Position numbers and translations under genes: made by a program. Positions 1 through 28,636 of a stretch of 53,847 bases of DNA are shown here, in pieces; position 1 is the first letter of the stretch, and each line of letters begins with the position of its first letter. Under the pieces are notes generated by a model. It worked only from the letters and a program-made list of their open reading frames with translations, did no database searches and was not told where the DNA came from. The DNA lies in assembly GCA_964641265.1 (NCBI GenBank), contig CAZXKS010000001.1:12793-66639 (forward strand), written 5' to 3'. This DNA comes from an uncultured Methanosarcinales archaeon. GTDB lineage: Archaea > Nanobdellota > Nanobdellia > Woesearchaeales > ARS49.

Positions 1-1583
1 TGCTGTACCACTCTGCTCAAATCACATGCTTGTGATATTAGTTTGCCGTCTTTGAATGCTGTGAATGGGTTGTCGCACCAGTTTCTTACTTGTGTGAATT
101 GTGGTGCTGTGTCTCCGCAGCATGTTAGCGTGTTTTTGGCTCCATTCAATTCGAATTCTTCGCTTGTGCAGCATGCTGCCGCGTATCTCATTTTTGGACT
201 TCCTCCGCCTTGTCCTGCCGGTGGTGCTTGCCGTTCTCTGACTTCTACTCTGCAGTCATCGGCGCTTGCTGGAATGTCTTGGTGCACGTCGTCGCTTACT
301 TCTAGTGCTGGTGGTGGGCCGTCGATTATTCCGAACGTGTACCCGCCTAGCGGTATTGATGGCGATGATAAAAACGTGATTTGGTATATGTTGAATGTTC
401 CGCTTCCTGCCAGGAATGGTTGTATGACTTTTGTGTGGACTGTTGTGATTAGTCCTGATGCTGGCGTGTATGCGTGGAGTAGTGAGCTGCCTGCTATTTG
501 GTTGGTTGGTGGTAGTGATGGGTCGAAGTTTGTGTCATCGAATGTGTCTTGTTCGAATACTCCTCCTATGTCTGGTGGCGAGCTTGGGTTGAACACTCTG
601 TATGTTACCGTGACTGGGTCTCCTTGGAATATTGTGCTTGGGCTTGCAATGCATGATTTGATAACTTCTTCTTCTTCATTGTTGCCTACTGTTATTTGTC
701 CGTCTTCGTTTTCAAGTGATTGGATGCTGAATGGTTGTGCGCCATCATCTGCTGTTGCTGTTTGGAAGTGTAGTGTGCTTGTTCCGATTTTTTTCGTGTA
801 ATAGTGGATTGTCGCAATATTTGCACCGCTTCCTTGTTCGCAGTCCGCGTTTTGTACGTTTAGTCCTGAAATTGTTACGCGTGTGTTTCCTGGTTGTATG
901 TTTGAGTTTCCGTTGCCTTGGTTTATGTCTACGCCTGTAACTTGAATGATGTTTTCATCATGGGTTATGGTTATGTCGATGTTTGCTGCGCTTCTTGTTT
1001 GTGTATTTGTTAAACAAACCGGAATGTCTACTGTTTCTTGTAAATATCCATACTTTTCTGGCAGGTAGAATCCTGTTTCTCCGCTTGGAGGCGGGGGTTG
1101 CTGTTGTTGTGCTTGTACTGTTATTGTTGCTCCGCTTATTGTTGTTCCTTGTATCGGATTGCCGTTTTGGTCGCTTGCTGATAGTTGTGATGTTGCCAAG
1201 TTGTAAGTTCCTGGTGGCGTGTTTGCTGGCACGTTGTATTCTAGTCTGAATAGTTGTCCGTTGGCTGGTGTTATTCCTTGCGTGTTGCCTCCAAAGACCG
1301 CGTATGGAGTGATTCTGTCTGCGTTGTTTTGTGTTACTCCGTTTAGGCTTCCTGTTAGTCGTGAGCTTGGTGTTCCTGAAACAAATGTTATTTGGCTTGT
1401 TGGATTTTCATCAACTTTTACTGAGAATGCCCAGAATGGTTGGTCGTTGTTGGCGTTTAAGTCGACATATACATCGTCTCCTGGGTTGACATTTTGTGCG
1501 CTTGGCGTTAGTGAGAAAGTTAGGGCAGCGCTTACGCTGGGTAATATCAGGGCCAGTGTTAGTAATAGTTTTATTGTTTTCAT
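1..1583 (-). CDS. Secreted protein with two tandem cohesin-like modules (start complete; 3' end runs off the window start)
   Basis: Absent from the ORF track. Hand translation of the minus strand from ATG at 1583 stays open to position 1 (about 527 codons): MKTIKLLLTLALILPSVSAALTFSLTPSAQNVNPGDDVYVDLNANNDQPFWAFSVKVDENP... Signal peptide. Two ~135-aa segments show a cohesin-like pattern (PGD.V.V.L, G.LF.LEY.V..PGTY.L, G.TITV; second copy ETVDIPVCL...ANIATIHYYTKKIGTSTLHF...DGQITV). ATGA overlap with the upstream gene at 1580-1583. Confidence 0.6.
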   Translation of the reverse strand, partial: MKTIKLLLTLALILPSVSAALTFSLTPSAQNVNPGDDVYVDLNANNDQPFWAFSVKVDENPTSQITFVSGTPSSRLTGSLNGVTQNNADRITPYAVFGGNTQGITPANGQLFRLEYNVPANTPPGTYNLATSQLSASDQNGNPIQGTTISGATITVQAQQQQPPPPSGETGFYLPEKYGYLQETVDIPVCLTNTQTRSAANIDITITHDENIIQVTGVDINQGNGNSNIQPGNTRVTISGLNVQNADCEQGSGANIATIHYYTKKIGTSTLHFQTATADDGAQPFSIQSLENEDGQITVGNNEEEEVIKSCIASPSTIFQGDPVTVTYRVFNPSSPPDIGGVFEQDTFDDTNFDPSLPPTNQIAGSSLLHAYTPASGLITTVHTKVIQPFLAGSGTFNIYQITFLSSPSIPLGGYTFGIIDGPPPALEVSDDVHQDIPASADDCRVEVRERQAPPAGQGGGSPKMRYAAACCTSEEFELNGAKNTLTCCGDTAPQFTQVRNWCDNPFTAFKDGKLISQACDLSRVVQ

Positions 1584-2632
1584 GGGTTGAAGCATATCGG
1601 GCTTGATACTGGTACTGTTCTGCTGTCAGTGTTTGCCAGTTCTGTTGTTTGTAGGAATGTCATATCTGCTGCGGTAAGGAAAGTGTCGTCGTTTGGATCT
1701 GTGTCTCCTACGCAGTTTGCTCCTGAGCCTGTGCATGCTGGATTCACACAGTTTACCAGCACGCTGAAGTCTCCATTAAAGTATTGTATCCAGTTGACAA
1801 TATCGTAAACATCGATTTCATTGTCTACAACTGGCGGGTTGTCGTATTCTAGCATGTCTGTTTCAAAGTCATCCGTGCCTGAGCCGCAGCCTGGGTCGTC
1901 TGGGAAGTCTATTAGTCCATCTCCGTCATTATCTATTCCGTCGCTGCATTCTGTGTCTCCTCTTAGAAATGTGACTGGCCCTCCGTTCGTCCATGTTATT
2001 GCGAACGCGTTTACCACATTTGTTTGTGGAATGTTTGTCTGCGGAATGCTTGCTGGCTGTTCAAAATCTTGCACAACGTATGCTGTTGGTTCTTGTCCTG
2101 CCCATTTTACCATTGAAAATATTCCTAAGATAAGTATCGCGAAGATGACTTTTGTTTTAACGCTGGTGCCTTCTAACACAATGAGCATTATTGATGCTGC
2201 GACTAAGATTAGTATTAGCACGAGTACGCCGCTTTCATCTCTTTCTTCTACTGTGTATGTTATTGCTCCTGTTGGGGTTGTTGGCCTGCTTACTATTTGT
2301 GGCGGTGGTGTTGGTAAAAAGTAGAATTCTGCTATTGGTGGTGGTATGTTTTTGTCTGGCGTGTTTACTCTTCTGAATGTTACTGCGCCTTTTATGCCTC
2401 TGTTAAATAGTTCTGGGTCTGTTGGTGGTGTGAAGCTTTGTGGCACTTCTACTCCATTTGCCCGTGTTCTTATTGTTATTTGTTCTATGTTTGCGTTTTC
2501 GTCATCTACGTCTACGTTTGGGAATGTTGTGAGCGTTTTTGTTCCCGAGTCTTTGCTTGTTATGCTGATTATTTCAGCGCTTGCGCTGCCTAGAATTATC
2601 AGAAAAACAAAAAAAGCAAGGACTGGCTTCAT
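1580..2632 (-). CDS. Membrane protein with a CSDGIDNDGDG Ca-loop module and a dockerin-like C-terminal duplicated segment
   Basis: 350-aa ORF with signal/anchor MKPVLAFFVFLIILGSASA and two internal hydrophobic helices. Motifs: CSDGIDNDGDGLIDFPDDPGC, then DNEIDVYDIVNWIQYF and DTDPNDDTFLTAADMTFLQ (D.N.D......D...L dockerin-like EF-hand pattern). AGGAGGGG Shine-Dalgarno site upstream of the ATG. Confidence 0.5.
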   Translation of the reverse strand: MKPVLAFFVFLIILGSASAEIISITSKDSGTKTLTTFPNVDVDDENANIEQITIRTRANGVEVPQSFTPPTDPELFNRGIKGAVTFRRVNTPDKNIPPPIAEFYFLPTPPPQIVSRPTTPTGAITYTVEERDESGVLVLILILVAASIMLIVLEGTSVKTKVIFAILILGIFSMVKWAGQEPTAYVVQDFEQPASIPQTNIPQTNVVNAFAITWTNGGPVTFLRGDTECSDGIDNDGDGLIDFPDDPGCGSGTDDFETDMLEYDNPPVVDNEIDVYDIVNWIQYFNGDFSVLVNCVNPACTGSGANCVGDTDPNDDTFLTAADMTFLQTTELANTDSRTVPVSSPICFNP

Positions 2633-2642
2633 TCAGCCCCTC

Positions 2643-4913
2643 CTATGATCCAGCCGGTACGAATATCTCTGCCACTCCTAGCGTTGTGCTCTCTACTCGC
2701 AATATTGAGTCTATTGTTAGTGGGTCTGGCGAGCATCCGCTTACTATTATTGCAAATGCTTCTCCTGCCGCCGCGGTTATGCTTTCGCTTCCTTGGCAGT
2801 TTTGTGGTCCTTTGACTTTGGAGTTTCCGCTCGGCACTGTTGCATACCATGTTGCTGTGACTGTTTCTGAGCTTAGTGGTACTGATGTTGTTACTCCTAC
2901 TTCTATGCCGAATGTTCCTCCTGGTCCTGGTACTGAGCCTGGCATTATGTTTATGTCCGTGAATATTTCGCCGTCGTGGTGTGTGTTTGTGAATGCTAGG
3001 TCTTGTACTGCTCCCATGATTTCTGTTGGGAATATTCCGTTGTCATTGTAGTAGAGGAATGTTGCTAGTCCTCTGTTTTGCTCGTCAAACCTTCCTGTCA
3101 GGCTTATGACGTCTGGGTTTGTTCCAAAATCGTTTCCGTCTGCTAGTCCTGGGAAGCTTTGCTTGTCCAGTAAGGTGATGCATTCTGCTGGCACTCTTAT
3201 TGATCTTACGTTTTCTTCCATGTCTGTTACTTGGAAGTCGAGTGTTTGGTCTGTTGCGCTTGGGTCGTCTATTGCGTCCCAGTTCACCACAATCAGATTG
3301 TAGTCTCCTGTGTCATCTATGCTTAGCGCAGGGACTATTGTTGTGAAGTGTTCTGCTGATTCGAATTGTGCGTTGTTGTTTGAAATAGTTGCGTGCAGTG
3401 AGAGCATTGCTTCCATTGCTGTTACTGAATCTAGCACGTCTTGTTGCGGGTCGTCTTCTCCTGAGCTTTCGCTGTCATCGTCTGCGTCCACGCATTGTTG
3501 GTCTCCGGGTGGGAAGTCGATGTCACCGTCTCCGTCATTGTCTATTCCGTCGCTGCATTCTGGTGTGTTTTCCATTACAACGTCCCATCTGTAGCCTAGG
3601 AGATTTTTCGCTTCATCACCGTCTGGGTCCCATATTGTTAGTACTCCTATTATTGGCGGTTCGCCTGGTAACAAGTGTCGTCCTGTTAGGTGGCTTACCC
3701 GAACGTATTCAACATCTTCTTCTGATAATTCTAGGCTGAAGTCTTGGTGCAGGCATTCTCTTGTTTCTTGTTGTGGGTCTAGTACGATGAAGTCCCATCT
3801 TGCTTTGACTGTTCTGTCTGCTCCTAGGTTGTGGATTGCGAATATTGTTTCTAGGTTGTGGCCTGCGTCTGGTGATTCACCTAATACTGCTTTTTGTACT
3901 CCTAGGCTTGCCAGCGCGCTTGCTGGTGCCGGGTTTTGGTAGTTTTCGTTTTGTCCTGTGAATATTCCTTGTGGTGCCGCGAGTGTTGAGACCATTAGAG
4001 AGATAGGGCTTCCTGTTCCGATGAAGAATAGGTTTGATATTGCGTCTGATATTGTGCCGAAGTTTGTTACTGTTCCTTCTCCGAATATTGCTCCGTTTTG
4101 TCTTGTTGTTCTTAATACTCCCACTCCTACGTCTGTTGTTGGGCTTCCTGGTAGTAGTCCTTGTCCGAGGTTGATTCCGTTTGCTCCTCCGCCTATGTCT
4201 GTGTATCTGTATCCTGGTATGTCGAGGTTTGTCAGGCCTGCGCAATCGATGTTGTCCAGGCTGTTTGATGCGAATTCTTCGTTGTCATCAAGTGTTCTTG
4301 TGGGAATTATTGTTGGTTGTGGTGTGAAGATGTTTATTGCTATTTCTGGGAAGAATGGTGTTGAGAATGCCACGCTTGTCAGTAATGGCAGGTAGATTAG
4401 GTTTTGTGGGAATAGTCCGTATTCTCCTCCGTTGAAGTTTACGTTGAAGCTTCCTGGTGGTATTGGTGCTATGCTTCCTCCTATTGGAATGTTTGTGTTT
4501 GGTATTGTCATTCCTGCCAGGTTCTTGACTGATGATCTGCCGTTGATGTATTTTATTCCTAGGATTGGTTGGTTTATGAGGTTTGCCCCGGCGAGGTCCT
4601 CTACTACAACTACTAGTTTTCTGTCTTGTTGGTCTGGTATTGTGAGCGTGATGTCTACTATGTCTAGCGGAGTAACTACTTCTTCTACGAAGTCTGTTCT
4701 TTCAAGGCAGGTGTCGTCGAAGAATGCCCAGTGTAGTCTTACATTCACGTTGCCTAAATATTGTATGAATATTTCTTCTGAGTCTTTTATTGTTATGTCT
4801 GTGATTAGTGCTGCTGCGAAGTTGCCTTGGTCCATTACTAGGTTGCCTTGCGCGGCTGCTGGTATTGTGCTAATAAGTAATAGTACTACTAGAATAGAAA
4901 GCTGTTTTTTCAT
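2643..4913 (-). CDS. Large secreted protein of unknown function carrying the same CSDGIDNDGDG-IDFP module
   Basis: 756-aa ORF with signal peptide MKKQLSILVVLLLISTIPAAAQG and motif ECSDGIDNDGDGDIDFPPGDQQC followed by an acidic linker. GAGGTGA SD upstream. First gene of a three-gene minus-strand operon. Confidence 0.6.
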   Translation of the reverse strand: MKKQLSILVVLLLISTIPAAAQGNLVMDQGNFAAALITDITIKDSEEIFIQYLGNVNVRLHWAFFDDTCLERTDFVEEVVTPLDIVDITLTIPDQQDRKLVVVVEDLAGANLINQPILGIKYINGRSSVKNLAGMTIPNTNIPIGGSIAPIPPGSFNVNFNGGEYGLFPQNLIYLPLLTSVAFSTPFFPEIAINIFTPQPTIIPTRTLDDNEEFASNSLDNIDCAGLTNLDIPGYRYTDIGGGANGINLGQGLLPGSPTTDVGVGVLRTTRQNGAIFGEGTVTNFGTISDAISNLFFIGTGSPISLMVSTLAAPQGIFTGQNENYQNPAPASALASLGVQKAVLGESPDAGHNLETIFAIHNLGADRTVKARWDFIVLDPQQETRECLHQDFSLELSEEDVEYVRVSHLTGRHLLPGEPPIIGVLTIWDPDGDEAKNLLGYRWDVVMENTPECSDGIDNDGDGDIDFPPGDQQCVDADDDSESSGEDDPQQDVLDSVTAMEAMLSLHATISNNNAQFESAEHFTTIVPALSIDDTGDYNLIVVNWDAIDDPSATDQTLDFQVTDMEENVRSIRVPAECITLLDKQSFPGLADGNDFGTNPDVISLTGRFDEQNRGLATFLYYNDNGIFPTEIMGAVQDLAFTNTHHDGEIFTDINIMPGSVPGPGGTFGIEVGVTTSVPLSSETVTATWYATVPSGNSKVKGPQNCQGSESITAAAGEAFAIIVSGCSPDPLTIDSILRVESTTLGVAEIFVPAGS

Positions 4914-5038
4914 TGTTTCACCTCTAACCCAAAATCCCTTTTTTCTGGCTAAACTATTTGAATACCAGTATATAAAGTTTCCTAACAGATACTTTTAAAT
5001 ATTCAAGCTGTGCTTTTTGCCGTAAAGAGGTTGACGCT

Positions 5039-8000
5039 GTGAATAAGCTAATACTGCTCGTTGTTTTGTTGTTGGTTTCTTGTGTTGGTCCTGGTCAAGC
5101 TATCGCGCGTTCTAATGTTTTGATTTATGTTAAGGATTCTGCTGGTGCTCCTCTTGTTGGTGCTTGGACTGGTATTTGTTACAATAATTGCAGAGTTAGC
5201 ACTCCTTCTTTTGCTTTGACTGATGCTCGTGGTGCTGCGCTTTTCAAAGGCGTGCCTGTTGGTGCTTACCAGTTTATTGTTGTCTCTAGTCCTTCTGATT
5301 ACCAAGCCTCTCCTGCAACTGCTACTTTGGCTTCTGCGTATGTTACTGTCACTCCTGTTCAGCTTCCTCGTGCTTGGACTTATAATTTCAGGACTGGAAT
5401 TACGCCAACGGCTTTTTGTGGAGATGGCAGGTGTACTGCTCCTGAGGATTTGAACAGTTGTCCACAGGATTGCAAAAGATGCGGTGATAACATTTGTACT
5501 GTTCCTTTCGAAAATCTACAAAATTGTGCTCGGGATTGTCATGTTTGTGGCGATACAATCTGTTCTTCTCCTTATGAAGACTCGATGAATTGCCCTATCG
5601 ATTGTCCGCCGCCTCTTGCTGGTCCATCCTGTGGCGATGGCGTTTGCAATGTTCCTGCCGAGGATTCATTCAGCTGTCCTCAGGATTGCCCGCCAACTCC
5701 ACCGCCCATGTGCACTTCTGCTGCACAGTGTAATGATGCTAACCCTTGTACTGCTGATACTTGCGCGAGTGGTACTTGTATGAATACTCTATTTGCGCCC
5801 TGCTGCGGTAACGTAGTTTGTGAGCCTGGCGAAACTTATTCCAGTTGTTCTAGTGATTGTCCTCCTCCATCAGCACCAAGTTGTTCTGATGGCATTAAGA
5901 ACGGTGATGAAACTGGTCTTGATTGTGGTGGTACGTGTTCAACAACTGCCCAGGGCAGCAAGCTTTGTACTGAGGGCGATGATTGCAATCCATTCGGGAA
6001 TGTGATGGAATGCGCGAGCACCCGTTGCGACCAGGCTACTGGAAAGTGTTCTAGAGCTTATGGTGACTATCTCTGCTCGTCATGCATACTGGGTGCATCA
6101 GGTCCTGCTACCTATTCATGTCGTGGAGCTGGTTGTGGTTCTGCAACAATCGCATACAACCACTGTACTGGTGGGCCCAGTGGGACTGGTTTAGGAAGCT
6201 GTCAGAAGCCTTGTTGGTTACAACCTCCAATGACCGGTGTCAGCGCTACCCACACTGCATACTGTGACGCGATTAGTCCAGCGCTTGGCGATCAATGCGC
6301 GACCAACCCGATTACAGGCAACTATCCAATGGGTCCGCCATTATGCTTAAGGGGCCCGCCTAGCGCAACGCCGTGCACCGCAGATGCCCAATGCGCTGAA
6401 TTCAAATGCGTGAGTGGTTCGTGCGCGACACCGACAACTTGCACCGATAGCGACAGTTCGATTACAACAAAGGGTACTGTGACGAATGATTGGAACAGCT
6501 ACACTGACCAGTGCGTTGGAAGCACGTTTACCTATAATCCAAGCTTAGGCATACCGCTTAGAACGACTCATGTTAAAGAAGGAACTTGTGGTGTTTCACC
6601 CACAAATCAACAGAATGCTATTGTAAAAAGCATAACTGCGTGCCCTTCACCAAACTATTGCGAAGATGGCGCGTGCAGGACACCAACGTGTACTGATGAT
6701 GATGGTGGCAATGATCTTACAAAGAAGGGGTCTGTGACGAGTGATGGCCAGGTCTGGATGCAGAAATCGACTGACAGGTGCGAGGTTGGTGTTCCAAGCT
6801 CGATTCGTGAATACACTTGTAATGTTGATGGATCGATTAAGGAAACTCTTACTTCATGTCCTGCAGGAACGCCTTTGTGTTCTGACGGTGCTTGCATTCA
6901 GAGTGTTGACTGGGTGCGCCAGTGGGGTACTGCTTCAGCTGATTATGCTCGCGGTGTAGTTGAGGTTGGCGGTAATGCTTATGTGACTGGCGTGCAGTTC
7001 TCAGCTAACGAGATTTTTGTTCGAAAGTATGATTCTACTGGCGCTCTTGTGTGGTCGCGCGAGTTTGGAACGTCAAATCCTGATGAGGCTTACGCTATTA
7101 CTGCTGATTCAACTGGCATTTATGTGGCAGGCATTACTGCTGGCGCGTTTTCAGGTACAAATGCAGGTGGTTATGACATTTTTGTTCGTAAGTATGATTT
7201 TGATGGCAATGTTGTCTGGACTGGCCAAGCAGGGACCGCGGGTGTTGATTATGCTTATGGTGTTGCTGTTGATACTACAGGAGTGTACTTAACTGGCTTT
7301 ACAACTGGGACTTTCAGCGGCCAGTCCAGAGTTGTTCCAGGCGGAACTGATCAGGATGGTTTTGTTGTGAAGTTTGATTTGGCTGGCAATTTTGTTTTTG
7401 CTCGTCAGTTTGGAACTTCGACTGTTGACGTTTCTCAGGGCATTGCTGCTGATGGAGCAAACGTTTATGCCGTTGGTTACACGCAGGGCGCGTTGACTGG
7501 AACTAATTCAGGATACACGGACGTCTTTGTACGCAAGTATGATAGTTCTGGAAATGTTGTCTGGACGAGACAATTTGGAACTTCAGCTAGCGATTGGGGT
7601 TTCGGAATTACTGCTGACTTAGCAGGAGTGTACGCGGTTGGCGCTACACAGGGTGCTTTGTCCGGGTCAAACCTAGGCGGGCCTAATGATGCATTTATGC
7701 GCAAGTTCAAAGCAGATGGCACTGTGGAGTGGACTCAACAATTCGGAACTTCTGCACAGGACCGCGCAAATGCAGTTGATATTGGCGCTACAGGCATTTA
7801 TGTAACTGGCTTCACAACGGGTGTCATGGCGACATCAACTGGAACATACGCGGATGCCTTTGTCCGTAAGTATGATGGCGCTGGTAGCGCGTTATGGACT
7901 CGCCAGTTTGGTACTTCTCAGGCTGATGATGCCTTAGGAATTTCTGCTAATTCAGCCGTTTTTGTTTCTGGCAGTGCATCCGGCACGTTCCCTGGTCAGA

Positions 8001-8053
8001 CTAGTGCAAGTGCTTTCATACATGACGCTTATCTTGCCAAGCTGACTGGTTAA
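5039..8053 (+). CDS. Secreted mosaic protein: CarboxypepD_reg-like domain, Cys-rich repeats, C-terminal SBBP-type beta-propeller repeats
   Basis: 1004-aa ORF (GTG start, AAGAGGT SD) with signal peptide MNKLILLVVLLLVSCVGPGQA. Five CGDG.C...E....CP.DC repeats, an IKNGDETGLDCGG motif and two C.D.D(S/G)...KG.V modules. Then about 8 repeats of FVRKYD..G...W..QFGT (beta-propeller repeat pattern). Confidence 0.7.
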   Translation: MNKLILLVVLLLVSCVGPGQAIARSNVLIYVKDSAGAPLVGAWTGICYNNCRVSTPSFALTDARGAALFKGVPVGAYQFIVVSSPSDYQASPATATLASAYVTVTPVQLPRAWTYNFRTGITPTAFCGDGRCTAPEDLNSCPQDCKRCGDNICTVPFENLQNCARDCHVCGDTICSSPYEDSMNCPIDCPPPLAGPSCGDGVCNVPAEDSFSCPQDCPPTPPPMCTSAAQCNDANPCTADTCASGTCMNTLFAPCCGNVVCEPGETYSSCSSDCPPPSAPSCSDGIKNGDETGLDCGGTCSTTAQGSKLCTEGDDCNPFGNVMECASTRCDQATGKCSRAYGDYLCSSCILGASGPATYSCRGAGCGSATIAYNHCTGGPSGTGLGSCQKPCWLQPPMTGVSATHTAYCDAISPALGDQCATNPITGNYPMGPPLCLRGPPSATPCTADAQCAEFKCVSGSCATPTTCTDSDSSITTKGTVTNDWNSYTDQCVGSTFTYNPSLGIPLRTTHVKEGTCGVSPTNQQNAIVKSITACPSPNYCEDGACRTPTCTDDDGGNDLTKKGSVTSDGQVWMQKSTDRCEVGVPSSIREYTCNVDGSIKETLTSCPAGTPLCSDGACIQSVDWVRQWGTASADYARGVVEVGGNAYVTGVQFSANEIFVRKYDSTGALVWSREFGTSNPDEAYAITADSTGIYVAGITAGAFSGTNAGGYDIFVRKYDFDGNVVWTGQAGTAGVDYAYGVAVDTTGVYLTGFTTGTFSGQSRVVPGGTDQDGFVVKFDLAGNFVFARQFGTSTVDVSQGIAADGANVYAVGYTQGALTGTNSGYTDVFVRKYDSSGNVVWTRQFGTSASDWGFGITADLAGVYAVGATQGALSGSNLGGPNDAFMRKFKADGTVEWTQQFGTSAQDRANAVDIGATGIYVTGFTTGVMATSTGTYADAFVRKYDGAGSALWTRQFGTSQADDALGISANSAVFVSGSASGTFPGQTSASAFIHDAYLAKLTG

Positions 8054-8110
8054 TTTCTTGTAGTAAAGAATTTAAGCACTTGTTGTTTTCTGTTATTAAA
8101 AAAAGAGACC

Positions 8111-10444
8111 ATGAACTCGCACCTTAGAATCTATTTGGCTTTTGGCATGTTGTTCTTCTTTGCTTTTCTTATTTGGAGGCCTGCGATTACTGGCAGGACT
8201 GTTGGTGGCGAGACTCAAACTGTTGTTGTTGTGTTAAAACCAGATGCTAGTAATGCTATTACTGGCGCTTCTGTTTTGAGTGATGAAGAGCCTTCTTTGG
8301 AAGAGCTGAAAGTTTTAACTGCAGAAGCCCAGAGAGAAGTGTTGGAGGACGTCAATAGTCCTTCTTTTTTTGAGCGTATTTTGTTTGTTAATCCTGAGCC
8401 GGATGTTGAGGCTGAGCGTACTTTGGAGATTGTGCCTGCCATGGTTGTTGAAGCCACTCCTGAGGGCATTGAAGAGCTTGAATCGCATCCTTTGGTCGAG
8501 GCTGTTTATCCCAACATTCAGTTCGAGTTGTTGCTTGCTCAGAGTGTTCCTTTGATTAATGCTGATGACGTCCAGGCTTTGCAGTTTAATGGGCAGAATA
8601 TTGATGGTCGTGGTAGGAGTGTTTGTGTTGTTGATACCGGTATTTCTCCCCACCAAGATTTCCAGGATAGGATTGTTGATCAGAAGTGTTTTTGTTCGCC
8701 AAATTGTTGTCCTAATGGCCAATCTACTGATGTTGTTGCAACCGATACTCATTCTATTAGTCATGGCACTCATGTTTCCGGAATTATTGGAGCTAACGGC
8801 CAGTTCAAGGGTGCCGCGCCTGGTGTTAATATTGTTGCGGTGAAGGTTTGTAATCTTGGTTGTGGTTTGGGTGATATTTTTGCTGGTATTGATTATTGTT
8901 TGCAGGTGAAGGATGCTTTTAATGTTGTTGCGATTAGTGGCAGTATTGGTGATGGTGGGAATTATCAATCTCAGCAGCAGTGTCCTACTTTTTTTGATGC
9001 TGCTATCGATGCTGCCTATAATGCAGGAGTAACTGGCGTGTTTGCTTCTGGTAATAATGGTTTTTCTAATGGTATTAGTTATCCTGGTTGTAATCCTAAT
9101 TCTATTGCTGTTGGTGCTACGGATAAAAATGATATTATCGCCAGTTTTACAAATCGTGGTTCTTTGCTTGATGTCTTGGCGCCTGGTGTTTCTATTACTA
9201 GCACAAAGGCTGGCAATACTTATGGCGCTTTGTCCGGCACCAGCCAAGCCACTCCTCATGTTTCTGGCGTTGTTGCTTTGTTGTCTCAGTTTGCTCAACT
9301 AAAAGGCATCCAGCTTTCTCCTGACCAAGTTAGGCAACTTTTGCAGGATACCGGCAAGCCTATCGGTAATTGGAAGCGTGTTGATGCGCTTGCTGCAGTT
9401 TTGTCTTTGAACGCTCCGCCTGTTGTTTCTATTTCTTCGCCAGTTGATGGTGCTGTTGTCCAGTCGTCTGTTACTTTGGAGGGTAGTGCTGTTGATGCCG
9501 AGGATGGTTCTTTATCTTCTGATAAGTTGTCTTGGGCTTCTGATATTTCCGGCAGTCTGGGCGCTGGGAATTCTTTGCAAATTGTTTTGCCTGTTGGTCC
9601 TCACACTTTAACTTTAACCGCTACAGATAGTATGGGAAAAACAGCTAGTGCTGTTGTACACTTAACTGTTCAGCAAACTCAAAACGCTCTTCCAGTCGCA
9701 ACTATTACAGTTCCTTCTGACAATGCTGTTGTTTCTTCTCCTGTTAATTTGGAAGGTTCTGCTTCTGATACAGAGGATGGTTCAATTCCTTCAGAGCAGT
9801 TGTCTTGGAGTTCTGATGTTTCTGGCAATTTGGGTACGGGTAATTCTTTGCAATCAAGCTTGCCTTCTGGTCTTCATGCGATTACTTTAACCGCAACTGA
9901 TAGCAATGGTGCTTTCGGAACCACGTTAGTTCACATTACAATTCAGCAACAATCCTCAAATAATCCGCCAAGCATAGCCATTACTTCTCCTACTGGGTCT
10001 TTTGTTCAGTCGCCTGTAACCTTTAGAGGTTCTGCGAGTGATGTTGAAGATGGTGTTTTGACAGGTACTTGGACTGAAAATGATGCTACTTTAGGTGTTG
10101 GTAATGAGTTGAATGTTGAGTTGCCTCAGGGTTCTCATTCTGTCACATTTTCAGCAACTGACTCAGCTGGTCTTATTTCTTCTTCTTCTGTTTCTTTTGT
10201 GGTTCAAACTTGTCAGTCAGATCTCGACCAGAATGCGAACAGTTTGCTTGACATTGGTGATTTTGTGCGTTTGTTGTCTTCTTTTGTTGCAGATTCTCTG
10301 CCTTGCAGCTCTGCATCCTCTTATTGTGTTGTTGAGTTGGACATGAATAATAATGGTGTTGTTGATATTGGTGATTTTGTTTTGTTGTTAAAGGCTTATG
10401 CTGAAGAACAGATTAATGATGTTAATGGCCAGTTGTGCGGTTAA
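8111..10444 (+). CDS. Secreted subtilisin-like serine protease (S8) with three Ig-like repeats and a C-terminal dockerin
   Basis: 777 aa with an N-terminal anchor and an I9-like propeptide. Catalytic motifs VCVVDTGI (D), HGTHVSG (H), SGTSQATPHV (S). Three ~95-aa repeats (P.V.I.SP.DG..V.S.V.L.GSA.D.EDG...). C-terminus DLDQNANSLLDIGDFVRLL ... ELDMNNNGVVDIGDFVLLLKAY is a duplicated dockerin Ca-binding segment. Confidence 0.85.
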   Translation: MNSHLRIYLAFGMLFFFAFLIWRPAITGRTVGGETQTVVVVLKPDASNAITGASVLSDEEPSLEELKVLTAEAQREVLEDVNSPSFFERILFVNPEPDVEAERTLEIVPAMVVEATPEGIEELESHPLVEAVYPNIQFELLLAQSVPLINADDVQALQFNGQNIDGRGRSVCVVDTGISPHQDFQDRIVDQKCFCSPNCCPNGQSTDVVATDTHSISHGTHVSGIIGANGQFKGAAPGVNIVAVKVCNLGCGLGDIFAGIDYCLQVKDAFNVVAISGSIGDGGNYQSQQQCPTFFDAAIDAAYNAGVTGVFASGNNGFSNGISYPGCNPNSIAVGATDKNDIIASFTNRGSLLDVLAPGVSITSTKAGNTYGALSGTSQATPHVSGVVALLSQFAQLKGIQLSPDQVRQLLQDTGKPIGNWKRVDALAAVLSLNAPPVVSISSPVDGAVVQSSVTLEGSAVDAEDGSLSSDKLSWASDISGSLGAGNSLQIVLPVGPHTLTLTATDSMGKTASAVVHLTVQQTQNALPVATITVPSDNAVVSSPVNLEGSASDTEDGSIPSEQLSWSSDVSGNLGTGNSLQSSLPSGLHAITLTATDSNGAFGTTLVHITIQQQSSNNPPSIAITSPTGSFVQSPVTFRGSASDVEDGVLTGTWTENDATLGVGNELNVELPQGSHSVTFSATDSAGLISSSSVSFVVQTCQSDLDQNANSLLDIGDFVRLLSSFVADSLPCSSASSYCVVELDMNNNGVVDIGDFVLLLKAYAEEQINDVNGQLCG

Positions 10445-11607
10445 GCTGCGTCTCTGCGTTTTATTTCTGTAAAAAACGCCTGTCTGATGTTCTCTGTTGC
10501 TCTTTGTTGAATGTAAGCGATTAGTTTTTTGTATCCTTCCACTAGTCCTTCGGTTGTTGCGGTTCCGTGGTTTTTGAATACTGGTTTGTTTAGGCAGATG
10601 AATGCAGCTCCGCCGTACTGGCTCGGGTCCATTCTTTTCTTAACTCTGTCAAACACTCCTCCCTTCCAGCTGAGCACCCATGCTGCTATTTTTTCATACA
10701 ATCTGCCATTTGTCCTGACTTCGTCTTCAATGAAGTCTTTTGTAAGATTTCCTCCTGTTACCATGCCTTTAATCAAGCCATTGCCATCGCCTCCTTCAGC
10801 TACCACTACATTTACAGGCCTTTGCTCACTTGTGCCTTTTTCTTGATCATAAACAGCCACGTGTGATTCTATGTTTCCTACAAATTGTTCGCCAAGCTTT
10901 TCTTTCAAATATTTGTGTGCTTCAATCAATAGAGGTTTTCCTTTGTTTTCTTCCTTGCCTATGTTTAGCAGCCCTACAGTTGGTTCATGTATTCCTCCAA
11001 CTGTTCTTGCATATATCATTCCTAATTGCGCATAGAGCCAGAATTGTTCTCGTCTTGTTAGTTGCGGTATTGAGCCCGCATCAATCAAATAGAAGGTGTG
11101 GTTTCTTTTGACTTTTGGCGATTTCGGAAGTTCTCCCAGCAATGGTAAAAGCTTTTCGTCCGGAAAAAGTGCTTTGTATTCGTCCATTACGCCAATTACT
11201 TTTGAGACTGCTGGTACTACGCGTCTTGTATTTTCGATTGTGTAGATGCCTTCGAACTCGCCGTCTTTTAGGCGTTTTGCCAATGGCAGTATCATTCCTC
11301 TTTGTTCTATGTGTTTGGCGATTTTAGTTCGAGCAGTTTCATCTTTTGCCTCTTTTACTGGATCAACTGGTGTGACGTTTGTGGGTTTGTAGCCTGCCAT
11401 TGCTTTGGTGATTTCTTCTTGACTGCCAAATAAAAAGAACTCACAGTTTGGGAAAAGGGGCGCCGCTATTTTTGCTGCTTGAACGTGTCTTTGGCAGGCT
11501 GTTTCGCCGTTTACCACATCTCCGCCTTGGGCATCAATTGCAATCCTGTATGTTGCTTGGTGCCTGGTTCTCTGCACAGCGCGTTGTAGTATGTCGTCTA
11601 GGCTCAT
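10441..11607 (-). CDS. PlsX-like phosphate acyltransferase family protein
   Basis: 388 aa. Matches PlsX landmarks: IAIDAQGGD (cf. AxDxMGGD), LLNIGKEENKG (cf. LLNIGEEExKG), VVVAEGGDGNGLIKGM (cf. DGFxGNxxLK), DPSQYGGAAFICLNKPVFKNHG (cf. GGAxLLGxxGxVIKxHG). There is an insertion of about 90 aa after the first motif. Confidence 0.6.
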   Translation of the reverse strand: MSLDDILQRAVQRTRHQATYRIAIDAQGGDVVNGETACQRHVQAAKIAAPLFPNCEFFLFGSQEEITKAMAGYKPTNVTPVDPVKEAKDETARTKIAKHIEQRGMILPLAKRLKDGEFEGIYTIENTRRVVPAVSKVIGVMDEYKALFPDEKLLPLLGELPKSPKVKRNHTFYLIDAGSIPQLTRREQFWLYAQLGMIYARTVGGIHEPTVGLLNIGKEENKGKPLLIEAHKYLKEKLGEQFVGNIESHVAVYDQEKGTSEQRPVNVVVAEGGDGNGLIKGMVTGGNLTKDFIEDEVRTNGRLYEKIAAWVLSWKGGVFDRVKKRMDPSQYGGAAFICLNKPVFKNHGTATTEGLVEGYKKLIAYIQQRATENIRQAFFTEIKRRDAA

Positions 11608-13770: not shown

Positions 13771-14664
13771 CTATGCTGCGAATTTTGCTGGAACGTAAAT
13801 TGGTGTTCCTGCGTTTGCTTCTTCAACTATTACTTGATTCACTGACCACGCCAATTCGCCTGCCGTAGGTCTTTTCGACATGTCTTTATGCATTCCTCTT
13901 TCAAATATTGTGTTCCATACAGTTCTTGCTTTTACAGGCACGTATGCTGGCAGTGTTACATTCAGATTTTCTAATGCGAATTTGATTAACTCCCTATCAT
14001 CCCAGTTTGGTCTTGCCAGTTCGAGTGGTGTTTGTCCTACGAGTGTTTCAAACAATACGGCCGTTAGATGGTATATGTCTGTTTGGCTGCTTTGCAGTCC
14101 TTCAGCGAATTCTTCCGGCGCCATGTAATATTCTGTTGTTGCAAGAGACTCTGCTACGTGTGGATAAACCCTCATCGTATCATAGTCTGCAAGTTGAGCG
14201 CCCACTATGTTTTTTGATTTTACATCTCCGTGCATCAGGCCGTATCCGTGCAAGTGGTCTAGTGCAAGGCTTACTCTTGTGAAAATGTTTCTTATTTGCT
14301 GCCAGGTTAAGTTTCCCCTGTCACCGTCTCTTATCATATGTTCAAGATCAGGGCCTTGTATTAGTGGCATTACAACTAGTGCTCCGTCTTTCGTCACGCA
14401 TTTGTCCAGTATCTCAACTAATCCTGGATGTTTGAATATGTCTGTTGGAAGGCTCAAGTATGCTACAAGTTCAGCAATCGTGGTTTCCTTATCTTCTGGC
14501 CGTTCCTCTTTTTTGTGATATAATTTCACAGCCACAGGATTTCCTGTTTGCATATCAACAGCACTATGAACCGTTGCGTATCCTCCACTTCCTACTTCCT
14601 CAAGTAGAACATACCTTTTCAACGCTTCTTCCAATACAGGATCCACCCTTTCTGCCGTTTTCAT
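13771..14664 (-). CDS. Eukaryotic-like Ser/Thr protein kinase
   Basis: 297 aa with G-loop VGSGGYATV, VAVK lysine, catalytic loop HGDVKSKN, and APE motif. Confidence 0.8.
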   Translation of the reverse strand: MKTAERVDPVLEEALKRYVLLEEVGSGGYATVHSAVDMQTGNPVAVKLYHKKEERPEDKETTIAELVAYLSLPTDIFKHPGLVEILDKCVTKDGALVVMPLIQGPDLEHMIRDGDRGNLTWQQIRNIFTRVSLALDHLHGYGLMHGDVKSKNIVGAQLADYDTMRVYPHVAESLATTEYYMAPEEFAEGLQSSQTDIYHLTAVLFETLVGQTPLELARPNWDDRELIKFALENLNVTLPAYVPVKARTVWNTIFERGMHKDMSKRPTAGELAWSVNQVIVEEANAGTPIYVPAKFAA

Positions 14665-20165: not shown

Positions 20166-23100
20166 GTGTTTAATTGCTCAGGGCGGAAAATTGTTTTGTT
20201 TCTTGTTTTGATTCTCTCGCTTGCAGGTGCTGCTGTTGCCCAACGCGTTCCTCCACCTCAATGTTCTTCTGATGCTGATTGTACTCCGCCTAAAACTTGC
20301 CAGTATTATGAGGGGTATGGTAATATTTGTGGTAATGGTTTCGGCGTTTGTCCTAACCCCGCTCATACCTGTTTTGAACAAGACGGCGCTGGTTGTAGTG
20401 ATGAAACATGCTGCAATAATATTTGTGGTATCGACCCTTTCTGTTGTAATGTTGATTGGGATGGCATTTGTGTGAGCGAGGCAAATAGTTTATGCGGACC
20501 TCCTCCTGAAGAGCCTGACCCTGAAGAATTGTTTGATCTAGAGCAGAAAATTGTTGATATGCAAACAATGCTGAATAAGTTGAATATTGAATTCAGTCTT
20601 ATGAAGAACTTGCTCCAGCAGGCTGTTGATGAGGCAAATGCTGGAAACATTCCTGCTTCTCTTGCTCATTTGCAGAACGCGCTTGATTTTATCGAGTTGA
20701 TTAAGCTGCAAAAGTTTGACTTGGAGAATTTGGTTGATGAGTTTGATAGAGAGCTGGAATCTTTGGATTCAGAAACTCGCTCGCAATTTCAGGCAATAAC
20801 GTCTGAAATACGTCGTGAACTTGAGCTTATTAATGCAATATTGCATAATAATGGTGAAGAACCCCCCATTCAAGGGTGTGGAAACGCCTTGGATGACGTT
20901 GCCGACTATATCAGCTGTACTTTGAATCCGGGTGAGGACTTCTTTATTCGCTTGCAAGACTTGATTCAAAACGGCGCTATTCCTGCCCTTGATGATGTTA
21001 TTGCTGAGAAGGAAAATATTGAGAATGTGAAGGTCGAAGCGTTGTCTGACTTGTTGGACAGTCTTATTGACGAGTTTGGCCCGGCAGTTCCACCGCCTTT
21101 TAATCCTAATTCTCCTGCGCTTGATGAGTTGAAAAAGGAGCTCTTTGACTTAAAGGAAAAAGGGTTGGAATTGCAAAGCATTCTTGCAGAGGCTGATGAG
21201 GAGCTTGTTGATATTAATAAAATCTTGGAAGAAGCTCGTGGGCTGCTTGAAGGAGCATGTGCATCATGTGATTCAGGAGGGACCGAGGAGGATTGTGATG
21301 TTTGTACGAATGATGATCGCCGCAATAGAGCTGCTCGTCTGATTGAGCGCGCTATTGTTATCAAGCATATTATTGCTGGTCCTTTTGAGTGTGAGCTGGC
21401 CAGCGAATGCGGTGTGTGTGAGGGAGAGGGTGCATGCCAGGACGGCGTCAAGATTCAGGACTTTGAGGAATTGAAGGGTGAGGCTGAGGAAGAGCTTGTT
21501 GAGTTGCGAAATAAGATTCAGGATCTCTGTAATGCAGAATTTATTGATGATAGGCGTTGCGACAAGTTCTTGCGTGCCAGTCATTCTATATTTAATAATG
21601 AAGATTCATTCAACCTTTTGAATTTGATCAATGAGGAGATCGATGGCGAAGGTGTTTCTTTCCAGAGCATTCTCGGTGAAGTAGATGGTGAGTTGAATCA
21701 AGCAATAGCAGATGTACAAACTGATGCGGATAATGCGGTTGATGAGATTGGGAATGCTATTGCATTGGTAAACCAAGCAATAATTCTCAAGGAATTCATT
21801 GAAGATATTAAAATTGGCCAAAAGTATTTCTTCTTCCTTAACTTTATTATTAATGATATTGGCACTATGCCTCGTGAGCCTCTTGATCAGATCTGGCTTG
21901 GCGAGGTTAAGGAGGAGTGGTTTAACATTCAGGTCAAGCTTCTCTGGCTTAATGATATGTTGAAGGATTTGAATGGTGAGATTGATATTCTCGAGAAGGA
22001 TATTCTTGACATCCAGAGCGCTTTTGAGTGTGAAGGTGAAGAATGTAGTGAATTAGAAGCCATCCAGGTTTTGCTTAAAAAGCTCGTTAATGCGATTGTT
22101 AAGGACATTATTACTTTGGTCGAGATTAATGAGTTGACTGATTTGATTGATGATATTCGTACGGAAAAGCGATTGGTTGAGGGAAAAATTAATTTGCTTT
22201 GCGGCGAAGAGTTTGATGATCTTAGCGTGACTGTTAATGGTCCGATTCTTGATGATGATCGTTTGTGTGATAAGCTTGAAAGAAAGCTTGCTGGAATGAA
22301 TAAGTTGCTTGACTTTATTGATGAGGAATTGGAAGAGATTACTGGTAAGCTTGGTGATTTGCTTGGTGGCTTGTTTGAATTCCTGTTCGCCATCCTTGGC
22401 CAGATTTTTACAGTCAGTGACGAGCCTATAACAAGTGAGAATTATCTTACTGTGATTGAACAGTTGTACCAGCAGTTGGGCCAGGCAGTTCAGCAGGGCA
22501 CTGTGGTGCAGAGCATTCAGCCTGCTCAGTTTGAGGAGTTTTTCGAGTTTGCGTTGGATAAAATACGTGATGCTCGGGCTGAGAAGGAGACTATTGAATT
22601 GCATAAGTTCCCGTTGTTATTCGAGCGATTTAGAACTATCGAAGATCTTATTGGTGGCTCTGTAAAGCCTGTCAACGAGTTGGACGCTGCTGAAGAGGCT
22701 GAAGAAGTTAGGGATATTCAGACCAAGCTTATTGAGATGAATAATTTGCTTGAATTGCTGAACAAGCAGTCTGATATTTTGATTGATTTTCTCATTGCTG
22801 TATTGAATGGTGAAAACCCTGACGTTCCAGATTTCGCAGGTATATTTAGCTCGATGGAACAAGAGCTTGATGGCCTTGTGAACATAAAGGCAGACTTTGA
22901 GAGTGAAATTAATGCCTTGGAAGGCAGCATCAGCGGACTTTCTGATGATCAAATAAACCCTGCGATTAAAGAGCATATTTTGCGTAATATAAATAAGATA
23001 AAATCGCTGGCGGAACTGACGAATATTGAGTTCTTTATTATGAACATCCTGCTTGACGAAGCTATATCTGCAGCCGAGAACGAGAACGCTGAGGATGCAT

Positions 23101-23720
23101 TCATATTCCTTGTGTTGTTCAAGGCTGAGAAGGAGGCTGTTGAGCAAAAGAAATTGGTTGCTATTGAGGCCGGGCTTTTGGAAATTGAGAATGCCTTGTT
23201 TGGTTGCGATGATGATGACCATGATAAATTGTTTGAGAATCCATTCTGCTTTGGTGGTTGTGGCCTAGACGACCATTGTGGCGATGGCAAGGTTCAGTTT
23301 GCTTTGTTCGAGCAGTGTGATGATGGTAATAATGTAGATAATGATGGTTGTACTAATGCTTGCCAGTTGCCTCGTTGTGGCGATGGTATCTTGCAGAATG
23401 GCGAGAAGTGTGATGATGGCAATAATGTTGATAATGATGCTTGCAGTAGTGAGTGTTTGATTCCTGATCCTGATGGGGACACTATTTGTGATAATACTAA
23501 GGGTATTTTGCCTTGCCAGTATAATCAAGGTTGTGAAACTAATTTGGATTGCGGCATGGGCGGCGCGTGTATGTATGGAACGTGCAAGTGTCCGGGCGTG
23601 AAGTGCGAAGGAGATGTTGATTGTGTTGGCCATATTGATTGCACGGGAATTGGTCAAAGCTGCGCTGTTCCTGGTGCTTGTGAGTTTTGTGATGATGGTG
23701 AGTGTAAATGTTCAGATTAA
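20166..23720 (+). CDS. Giant secreted acidic coiled-coil protein flanked by Cys-rich modules
   Basis: 1184 aa (GTG start, GGGTGAA SD) with a signal peptide. N-terminal Cys-rich module includes CCNNICGIDPFCCNVDWDGIC. About 850 aa are E/D/L/I-rich helical sequence. Near the C-terminus are two CGDG.....E.CDDGN.VDND.C...C repeats (Myxococcus-type cysteine-rich repeat pattern) and a Cys-rich tail. Confidence 0.7.
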   Translation: MFNCSGRKIVLFLVLILSLAGAAVAQRVPPPQCSSDADCTPPKTCQYYEGYGNICGNGFGVCPNPAHTCFEQDGAGCSDETCCNNICGIDPFCCNVDWDGICVSEANSLCGPPPEEPDPEELFDLEQKIVDMQTMLNKLNIEFSLMKNLLQQAVDEANAGNIPASLAHLQNALDFIELIKLQKFDLENLVDEFDRELESLDSETRSQFQAITSEIRRELELINAILHNNGEEPPIQGCGNALDDVADYISCTLNPGEDFFIRLQDLIQNGAIPALDDVIAEKENIENVKVEALSDLLDSLIDEFGPAVPPPFNPNSPALDELKKELFDLKEKGLELQSILAEADEELVDINKILEEARGLLEGACASCDSGGTEEDCDVCTNDDRRNRAARLIERAIVIKHIIAGPFECELASECGVCEGEGACQDGVKIQDFEELKGEAEEELVELRNKIQDLCNAEFIDDRRCDKFLRASHSIFNNEDSFNLLNLINEEIDGEGVSFQSILGEVDGELNQAIADVQTDADNAVDEIGNAIALVNQAIILKEFIEDIKIGQKYFFFLNFIINDIGTMPREPLDQIWLGEVKEEWFNIQVKLLWLNDMLKDLNGEIDILEKDILDIQSAFECEGEECSELEAIQVLLKKLVNAIVKDIITLVEINELTDLIDDIRTEKRLVEGKINLLCGEEFDDLSVTVNGPILDDDRLCDKLERKLAGMNKLLDFIDEELEEITGKLGDLLGGLFEFLFAILGQIFTVSDEPITSENYLTVIEQLYQQLGQAVQQGTVVQSIQPAQFEEFFEFALDKIRDARAEKETIELHKFPLLFERFRTIEDLIGGSVKPVNELDAAEEAEEVRDIQTKLIEMNNLLELLNKQSDILIDFLIAVLNGENPDVPDFAGIFSSMEQELDGLVNIKADFESEINALEGSISGLSDDQINPAIKEHILRNINKIKSLAELTNIEFFIMNILLDEAISAAENENAEDAFIFLVLFKAEKEAVEQKKLVAIEAGLLEIENALFGCDDDDHDKLFENPFCFGGCGLDDHCGDGKVQFALFEQCDDGNNVDNDGCTNACQLPRCGDGILQNGEKCDDGNNVDNDACSSECLIPDPDGDTICDNTKGILPCQYNQGCETNLDCGMGGACMYGTCKCPGVKCEGDVDCVGHIDCTGIGQSCAVPGACEFCDDGECKCSD

Positions 23721-27637: not shown

Positions 27638-27710
27638 AGCCCCATCGTATAGCGGTCAAGTATAGAGGGCTTTGGACCCTTTGACGGCGGTTCGAATCCG
27701 CCTGGGGCTA
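27638..27710 (+). tRNA. tRNA-Gln (anticodon UUG)
   Basis: AGCCCCATCGTATAGCGGTCAAGTATAGAGGGCTTTGGACCCTTTGACGGCGGTTCGAATCCGCCTGGGGCTA. A1-U72 acceptor is typical of archaeal tRNA-Gln. Anticodon loop CTTTGGA. Confidence 0.9.
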
Positions 27711-28563: not shown

Positions 28564-28636
28564 AGCCCCGTCGTATAGCGGTCAAGTATACGGGACTCTG
28601 ACTCCTGTGACGGCGGTTCGAATCCGCCCGGGGCTA
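28564..28636 (+). tRNA. tRNA-Gln (anticodon CUG)
   Basis: AGCCCCGTCGTATAGCGGTCAAGTATACGGGACTCTGACTCCTGTGACGGCGGTTCGAATCCGCCCGGGGCTA. Anticodon loop CTCTGAC. Near-identical to the UUG isoacceptor outside the anticodon arm. Confidence 0.9.

Follow-up and report, generated by a model that had tools for sequence, protein, structure and literature searches.

We describe a locus of five exported proteins at the left end of a 53,847-nt stretch of archaeal DNA (contig CAZXKS010000001.1, positions 12,793 to 66,639 of the forward strand; hereafter the window, positions being counted from its first letter). Three of the genes are read from the minus strand in the order C-B-A and two, D and E, from the plus strand; gene A encodes a protein with a cohesin module and gene E an S8 subtilisin that ends in a dockerin-like module. 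We lean towards reading the locus as a non-cellulosomal cohesin-dockerin tether by which one protease would be held at the cell surface through binding of its tail to the cohesin protein. The best available evidence that protease and cohesin anchor belong together is their recurrence as neighbouring genes: the pair of protease-dockerin and cohesin-anchor genes is found in at least nine lineages, in some of which B and C are missing.

Conservation of the gene pair

Relatives of the locus were collected by scanning with a profile of protein B, which added three loci from genomes and three from metagenomes, and further genomic contexts were obtained through exact-protein look-ups. The C-B-A operon is conserved in about eight lineages, and in each of the six lineages with contigs long enough to show it the gene of the dockerin-tailed S8 protease lies divergent from it and upstream. 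Because synteny alone could explain such an adjacency, we examined more distant orthologs of the S8-dockerin protein, and in three of four lineages (L020, L022 and L024) the protease gene is divergent beside a gene for a small cohesin protein with a transmembrane (TM) helix, with neither B nor C present. In these small proteins a signal peptide is followed by between one and three cohesin-like modules and a Ser/Gly/Pro linker, and a TM helix forms the C-terminal part; when compared with cohesin module 1 of A using hhalign, those of L020 and L024 gave probabilities of 87.5% and 95%, while the L022 protein is homologous to that of L020 (BLASTP 8e-30). Since the pair persists while other genes change, the invariant unit is a dockerin-tailed protease together with a TM-anchored cohesin protein.

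The cohesin protein A

The translation of positions 1..1583 gave a significant match to the Pfam Cohesin hidden Markov model (HMM; PF00963, E 1.3e-9) over two stretches. Module 1 also scores 33.9 bits on this model in one ortholog, and a profile built from six orthologs matches the solved Ruminococcus flavefaciens scaffoldin cohesin 5n5p (E 3.2e-11), the nearest solved cohesin by sequence and a point of likeness to scaffoldins, as well as the “autonomous cohesin” 4wkz and 4n2o (E 0.007). Judged by these matches module 1 is a genuine, secure cohesin. The sequence-only reading of this DNA, made from the letters and translated open reading frames (ORFs), had assigned to A a signal peptide and two tandem cohesin-like modules; the signal peptide and module 1 hold, whereas module 2 is borderline. 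Scored alone, module 2 attains 25.1 bits on Pfam Cohesin for a gathering cutoff of 24.1, a profile search of the PDB gave no cohesin match, and hhalign of module 2 versus module 1 was not significant; being one bit over the cutoff, with orthologs below it and no cohesin match in the PDB, it is named here only cohesin-like.

A third conserved beta-rich domain of A was tried as a cohesin and rejected, as hhalign versus module 1 gave a probability of 16%, over the last strands only, and Pfam Cohesin 13.6 bits in one ortholog; no PDB match was obtained by profile. It is possibly a degenerate cohesin-like module.

Gene A is cut by the edge of the window, and the sole exact-match contig (JGI Ga0136847_12173859, 7.2 kb) stops within the gene, the C-terminal architecture described here being that of its orthologs and not of the window sequence. 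Full-length orthologs are 694-787 aa long, and their beta domains are followed by variable Cys-rich repeats, a Gly-rich stretch and a Cys knob, then by a stalk rich in Pro, a single TM helix and a basic cytoplasmic tail in which the motif YEAEVRKKLAKA is conserved. Because the orthologs end in stalk, TM helix and tail, we take A to be membrane-anchored, with its cohesins displayed distally.

The C-terminal module of the subtilisin E

Protein E is a member of Peptidase_S8 (PF00082, E 3.5e-43), in which Pfam also detects Big_7 and PKD, and its catalytic triad is intact (D175/H218/S378, with VCVVDTG at 171, HGTHVSG at 218 and GTSQATP at 376). A role of this protease in anti-phage defence was considered and discarded, since the weak matches to IetS/IteS cover the generic subtilase core only and stay far under the curated cutoff.

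The tail of E is a duplication in which each half reads C-x-x-E-L-D-x-N-x-N-G-x-x-D-I-G-D-F-V-x-L-L and closes with another Cys, and the duplication is kept in 12 orthologs. Both loops, DQNANSLLDIGD at 10226..10261 and DMNNNGVVDIGD at 10340..10375, fit the 12-residue pattern D-x-[DN]-x-[DN]-G-x-[ILV]-D-x-x-D; a six-frame scan of the window for the EF-hand/dockerin loop pattern returned three matches, two of them in E and one in B. When isolated, the module matches the NCBIfam “GC-type dockerin” NF041540 with 30.2 bits (cutoff 29, E 4.3e-7, positions 1-65 of 67), the score within the whole protein being only 18.8 bits. With that family it has in common a C-terminal extent of ~65 aa, two repeats of Ca loop plus helix and conserved Cys, and it may be seen as at best a divergent relative of it. 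Moreover, an exhaustive HMMER search with the module against 1.8 billion representative proteins yielded 34 matches; the close ones were all S8-plus-Ig orthologs or their fragments, and the best non-orthologous match was a protein of ten Pfam dockerins (E 1.2e-11).

An AlphaFold (AF2) model computed from the 12-sequence alignment (predicted local distance difference test, pLDDT, 85.9; E7-9, H20-31, E45-47, H58-69) consists of strand-loop-helix twice, with a short strand before each loop. The two segments, each a 12-residue Ca loop followed by a helix in ~22 residues, are those of an F-hand dockerin; the helix-loop-helix units and four-helix pair of a canonical EF-hand pair are not seen, the model having two helices. 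Since no helix enters either loop, the module lays out as a dockerin F-hand and not as an EF-hand. In a Foldseek comparison with the PDB, dockerins made up 11 of the top 15 matches, at a root-mean-square deviation (rmsd) of 4-6 Å; the leading ones (4dh2_D, 2vn6_B, 5nrk_D and 2ccl_B) had TM-scores of 0.38-0.54, rmsd of 4.2-4.6 Å, E-values of 0.6-2 and probabilities of at most 0.38, while EF-hand proteins superposed on the model with rmsd of 9-13 Å and TM-scores of about 0.2. The placement is also typical of dockerins, at the terminus of an exported protein and with a cohesin gene 6.5 kb away. Our reading is that of a divergent, disulfide-stapled dockerin-type module.

The S8 ortholog of locus L026 (P0147, 8001-10313) apparently has three dockerin-type segments, the HMM matches overlapping (residues 676-723 and 683-775); its gene is followed by that of a 913-aa DUF676 esterase-like membrane protein.

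A related module in the membrane protein B

Protein B has a hydrophobic hairpin (residues 135-153 and 160-178; Kyte-Doolittle windows peak at 3.26 and 1.95), and therefore the N-terminal domain and the last 170 residues are both predicted to lie outside the cell. Residues 259-350 are near-invariant in 16 orthologs, with IDVYDIVNWIQYF and DPNDDTFLTAADMTFLQ and conserved Cys between them, and loop 1 has no acidic residues at positions 1 and 3. The profile of this region aligned with the S8 module in hhalign (probability 85.8%, E 5.4e-6, 69 columns), and when the window and loci L001-L019 were searched with the S8-module HMM, the B orthologs were the sole matches besides the S8 tails. NF041540 did not match B; an AlphaFold model of the C-terminal domain, built from 16 orthologs, reached pLDDT 45 with helices at both predicted F-helices, and Foldseek found no match for it. 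With a poor model and an empty Foldseek search, it is hhalign and the HMM that argue, with moderate confidence, that B probably carries a degenerate copy of the S8 dockerin-like module. A dockerin-like segment in B had been proposed on the basis of a duplicated D.N.D motif; a related module is indeed present, at residues 259-350, but the duplicated segment then named is not that module.

The perfect D-x-D-x-D loop of B, DNDGDGLIDFPD, was also tried as a dockerin and rejected, as it is part of an acidic double-disulfide repeat (NCBIfam NF033662) whose profile also finds the teneurin C-rich region that binds Ca (PDB 7plp). As in NF033662 and 7plp, the unit C-x-D-G-x-D-N-D-G-D-G-x-x-D-x-x-D-P-x-C occurs in B and in C (in the latter at residues 452-475, about 3489..3560 of the minus strand), and in many unrelated bacterial proteins it is found repeated. 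Unlike there, here it is a single inserted copy that varies among orthologs; it behaves as a small insertable module, being missing from the L007 ortholog of C and altered in most B orthologs.

Proposed mechanism

Under the tether reading, A would be a type I membrane protein whose cohesin module or modules are held off the membrane by the Cys-rich and Pro-rich stalk, its anchor being a C-terminal TM helix that would lie beyond the window edge. The only membrane link of E would be its N-terminal signal anchor, which the pro-region follows. Subtilases normally cleave off their pro-region by autocatalysis; loss of signal anchor and pro-region in this manner would free mature E from the membrane, and its disulfide-stapled, presumably Ca-binding dockerin-like tail would then plug into the cohesin of A. 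The active protease would stay on the cell because its tail is bound to a membrane-anchored cohesin, where otherwise the mature enzyme would diffuse away, and once tethered it would presumably gather peptides for a cell whose own biosynthetic capacity is small.

In the clade of the window, genes C and B would have been added upstream of A. There A has two cohesin-type modules for two module carriers, E and B, and B might sit constitutively in one and the protease in the other; since B is translationally coupled to A, it is probably bound to the second cohesin or joined to A in a fixed complex of another kind. Given that the module subtype was found only on S8 proteases among the 1.8 billion representatives, we picture a dedicated tether for one enzyme and not a multi-cargo machine; the modular cell-surface machine with several cargoes that the sequence-only reading suggested finds no support in this search.

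Alternative explanations

A number of results weigh against the tether reading. Full-length E gave no match to Pfam Dockerin_1 (PF00404) at E <= 1, and the isolated module scored 14.7 bits (E 0.037, cutoff 22.9), through its second segment only; just two of the 12 orthologous modules match NF041540 at E <= 0.01; sequence and profile searches of the PDB with the E module returned troponin C (E 1.5e-4) and calcium vector protein (1e-3) before dockerins (~0.2); and Foldseek against the PDB gave no significant match, the best E-value being 0.6 and the TM-scores 0.44-0.54, with target-normalised values of up to 0.54. The orthologs of module 2 of A score 21.4 bits, 18.9 bits or not at all on Pfam Cohesin, all under the cutoff, and the small proteins of the distant lineages are not reached by Pfam Cohesin, being linked to it transitively only. 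The protease of L026 has no cohesin gene within 8 kb. Finally, the wider region is syntenic among the genomes (PlsX, Hel308, diphthamide synthase, CarS), so the adjacency of the two genes could be a matter of inheritance and not of function. The tail of E had been called a clear two-segment dockerin; its duplicated architecture of Ca loop plus helix stands, but “clear” is too strong, because the Pfam Dockerin_1 threshold was failed, and the Foldseek E-values are no better than 0.6.

Much of this would fit a different explanation, in which the modules of E and B are a Ca2+-dependent stabilising or regulatory domain of EF-hand type that binds no cohesin, A has a different ligand or plays a structural part in the envelope, and the adjacency is inherited synteny. 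Sequence profiles do rank EF-hand proteins over dockerins, Pfam EF-hand_1 gives the E module 21.7 bits (under its cutoff of 25.4) and so more than Dockerin_1, subtilases are commonly stabilised by bound Ca2+, synteny extends over the whole neighbourhood, and the L026 protease stands without a cohesin neighbour. With EF-hand pairs such as troponin C and calcium vector protein the E module has its loop pattern and its best sequence E-values in common; unlike them it is extracellular, disulfide-bonded and located at the C-terminus of an enzyme, with no entering E-helix in the model, on which dockerins superpose far more closely. The module closes a secreted multidomain enzyme, following its Ig spacers at the extreme C-terminus, which is the canonical place of a dockerin, and the pair of cohesin-TM and S8-module genes persists though intervening and flanking genes change. 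We consider this explanation unlikely, although it deserves to be kept in mind.

The C-B-A operon could also encode an envelope of the S-layer or stalk type, with C as canopy, A and B as its anchors, the cohesin-like sandwiches being structural or binding C, and the S8 enzyme acting as a maturation protease. The archaeal S-layer anchor SlaB offers the comparison for A, whose stalk and C-terminal TM helix are a layout typical of such anchors, and C is a large and highly conserved secreted protein, encoded by the gene that opens a tight operon and without a match to anything known in the searches made. Yet the pair of S8-dockerin and cohesin-TM proteins is retained in distant lineages with neither C nor B, which makes C dispensable for the core function; C shows no detectable dockerin-like module, and Pfam and NCBIfam reveal no S-layer family signature in A, B or C, so that an envelope operon seems to us somewhat less probable again. 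A multi-component adhesion machine has also been envisaged, in which D and C would be adhesins mounted with the protease on a cohesin scaffold for attachment to a host cell or to particles. That DPANN archaea are commonly episymbionts according to the literature, that D and its FG-GAP counterparts are adhesin-like lipoproteins with a beta-propeller and that all five products carry export signals would suit it; but dockerin-like and cohesin-like modules are lacking in both D and C, conservation of the locus does not extend to D, and the exhaustive search finds the dockerin subtype on S8 proteases only. No support was obtained for a role in adhesion or host attachment, and we rate this reading as the least probable of all. 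Hardly better are the prospects of a related idea, that the cohesin-dockerin pair has become the central joint of an envelope apparatus, in which A and B form a Ca-dependent platform holding the protease and C, a large secreted protein that would have an entirely new fold, at a host contact site as a feeding or attachment organelle of an episymbiont; a dockerin borne by a polytopic membrane protein would then be an arrangement without earlier description. The tether, for its part, is the reading that we carry into the comparison with known systems.

Relation to known systems

Cellulosomes anchor their enzymes by surface scaffoldins such as SdbA and OlpB of Clostridium thermocellum and ScaE of R. 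flavefaciens. The locus resembles these in that a surface-anchored protein presents cohesins for dockerin partners, a capture that is Ca-dependent there and would be so here. It differs in having a TM helix in place of SLH (S-layer homology) domains or sortase anchoring, and in having a protease as cargo, with no carbohydrate-binding module (CBM), carbohydrate-active enzyme cargo or adaptor hierarchy. In agreement with what had been noted before, no domain of a glycoside hydrolase, carbohydrate esterase, polysaccharide lyase or CBM was found in the five locus proteins and the 30 other window ORFs that were scanned; the locus has neither dockerin-bearing carbohydrate-active enzymes nor a multi-cohesin scaffoldin with a CBM, the features that define a cellulosome.

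A closer parallel is given by the non-cellulosomal cohesins and dockerins of archaea, which the sequence-only reading had rightly mentioned: according to PMC9012536, which cites Bayer 1999, Haimovitz 2008 and Peer 2009, they are established in Archaeoglobus fulgidus and in anaerobic methanotrophic archaea (ANME-1/-2), and binding has been verified for the modules of Archaeoglobus. Like those, the present pair belongs to a host without cellulases, has few cohesins per protein and a non-glycolytic cargo, and is presumed to link extracellular proteins. Unlike them, the cohesin protein has its own C-terminal TM anchor, its gene has that of a single protease cargo as partner in many lineages, the dockerin is Cys-stapled, divergent and fails Pfam Dockerin_1, the polytopic membrane protein has a second, degenerate copy of the module, and the host is a DPANN lineage. 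We found no description of a cohesin or dockerin in this DPANN group in the searchable literature. New here are the genomic pairing of a cohesin anchor with a single protease cargo, the anchoring of the cohesin protein by a TM helix, a dockerin subtype with Cys staples that is invisible to Pfam and a polytopic membrane protein with a related module.

Non-cellulosomal cohesin-dockerin pairs have been catalogued for more than 20 years, mostly without an assigned partner or purpose, and here the genome itself points to the partner, giving a concrete candidate binding pair in an uncultured, genome-reduced archaeal group. If true, the proposal would explain how a nano-archaeon that is wall-less or has only an S-layer stops an extracellular protease from diffusing off, would add a disulfide-stapled dockerin subtype overlooked by current Pfam models, and would offer protein engineering a cohesin-dockerin pair that is small and orthogonal. 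The basic picture of cohesin and dockerin function is unchanged by the finding.

Layout of the locus and source of the DNA

The five ORFs were all confirmed at the coordinates and strands first given for them, and the features discussed above are collected in Table 1. B begins 10 nt after the end of C, with a GGAGG motif 8 nt ahead of its start. The coupling of B and A through an ATGA overlap is borne out by relatives, the same 4-nt overlap being present in L002, L004, L008, L014, L016 and L018, and so is the description of the divergent neighbours, a Cys-rich/beta-propeller protein and an S8 subtilisin on the plus strand.

Table 1. Coordinates of the genes and modules of the locus within the window.
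Feature	Position	Strand	Description
Gene A	1..1583	-	527 codons, cut by window edge; starts MKTIKLLLTLALILPSVSA; signal peptide, cohesin 1, cohesin-like 2, third beta domain, start of Cys-rich region
Cohesin module 1 of A	1110..1526	-	Residues 20-158; PF00963 positions 7-137 of 139, 38.9 bits
Cohesin-like module 2 of A	681..1088	-	Residues 166-301; borderline
Third conserved beta-rich domain of A	237..680	-	Residues 302-449
ATGA overlap	1580..1583	-	Stop codon of B / start codon of A; translational coupling
Gene B	1580..2632	-	350 aa; signal peptide, extracellular N-domain, TM hairpin, acidic disulfide repeat, C-terminal dockerin-like module
TM hairpin of B	2093..2230	-	Residues 135-180; conserved in alignment of 16 orthologs
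Acidic double-disulfide Ca-loop repeat of B	1883..1960	-	CSDGIDNDGDGLIDFPDDPGC; NCBIfam NF033662, 28.6 bits
Dockerin-like module of B (probable)	1583..1858	-	Residues about 259-350; degenerate loop 1, canonical loop 2 DPNDDTFLTAAD, four conserved Cys
Gene C	2643..4913	-	756 aa, secreted; first gene of C-B-A operon
Gene D	5039..8053	+	1004 aa, GTG start, 63 Cys; predicted lipoprotein (lipobox LVSC), Cys-rich repeats, SBBP beta-propeller
Gene E	8111..10444	+	S8 subtilisin; N-terminal signal anchor and pro-region, catalytic domain, three Ig/PKD repeats, C-terminal dockerin-like module
Dockerin-like module of E	10196..10441	+	C-terminal 82 aa; two Cys-flanked repeats of strand, Ca loop and helix

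The gene content of the window is archaeal, including an ATP-dependent DNA ligase, a Hel308-type helicase with the archaeal domain 4, XPD, an RNA 3'-phosphate cyclase, DUF460, FtsZ and an S13/S15-type ribosomal protein, and the closest named relative of protein A is a protein of a “Candidatus Woesearchaeota archaeon”. The host is a DPANN-type (Woesearchaeota-like) archaeon, and so of the small-genome type that had been supposed. Among public metagenome-assembled genomes carrying C-B-A, those of L008 and L010 are titled “uncultured Methanosarcinales archaeon” and that of L009 Woesearchaeota, with the same gene content and synteny; at least one of these conflicting labels is probably wrong.

Genes C and D

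Protein C gave no match in Pfam, NCBIfam, PADLOC or PDB profile searches, save for the one short acidic Cys repeat, which agrees with its earlier description as a secreted 756-aa protein of unfamiliar fold, and no similarity of C to the dockerin-like module was detected. The HMMs built here found neither a dockerin-like nor a cohesin-like module in D. The position of D is taken by an FG-GAP lipoprotein in L002, L008, L016 and L018 and is empty in L014; because the gene between C-B-A and the protease varies in this way, D lies outside the conserved core. The Cys-rich/SBBP protein had been counted as a component of the assembly, but being swapped or absent in relatives it is not a conserved partner.

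The lipobox of D (LVSC) and those of its FG-GAP and Cys-rich counterparts fit the bacterial-type lipoprotein machinery seen in this archaeal clade, where L022 carries LGT (PF01790) at 142-894 and signal peptidase II (Peptidase_A8) at 11018-11509. Another Cys-rich protein of the window, of 1184 aa (20166..23720, plus strand), has acidic repeats of the myxobacterial type (TIGR02232, 55 bits; DUF4215) and is probably surface-exposed; the same HMMs found no cohesin or dockerin module in it.

Other genes of the region

A PlsX-like gene (10441..11607, minus strand; Pfam FA_synthesis, C-terminal two thirds of the profile only) adjoins the S8 gene in the window and is its conserved neighbour in several relatives (L014 4264-5736, L018 147-1589, L024 5201-6652), and the window also has a PlsC-type acyltransferase gene (47495..48817, minus strand). 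Loci with the PlsX-like gene carry archaeal CarS and CDP-alcohol transferases as well, which suggests that bacterial-type and archaeal-type lipid genes are mixed in the clade. Genes with a GGDEF domain (diguanylate cyclase-type) occur in the syntenic region of L002 (1-343), L016 (1-591) and L024 (8818-9858), with none among the window ORFs scanned.

Directly downstream of A, at a spot that lies beyond the left edge of the window, genes of LAGLIDADG-type homing endonucleases are present in L002 (13096-14199), L004 (9224-9862) and L020 (4110-5009). They adjoin a short diphthamide-synthase-like ORF (86-89 aa), which suggests a mobile element or a split gene. Within the window, a gene for a eukaryotic-type Ser/Thr protein kinase (13771..14664, minus strand; Pkinase E 1e-32) adjoins that of the Hel308-type helicase, and two tRNA-Gln genes, TTG (27638..27710) and CTG (28564..28636), flank a small PAP2-family phosphatase gene (27713..28156), all three on the plus strand.

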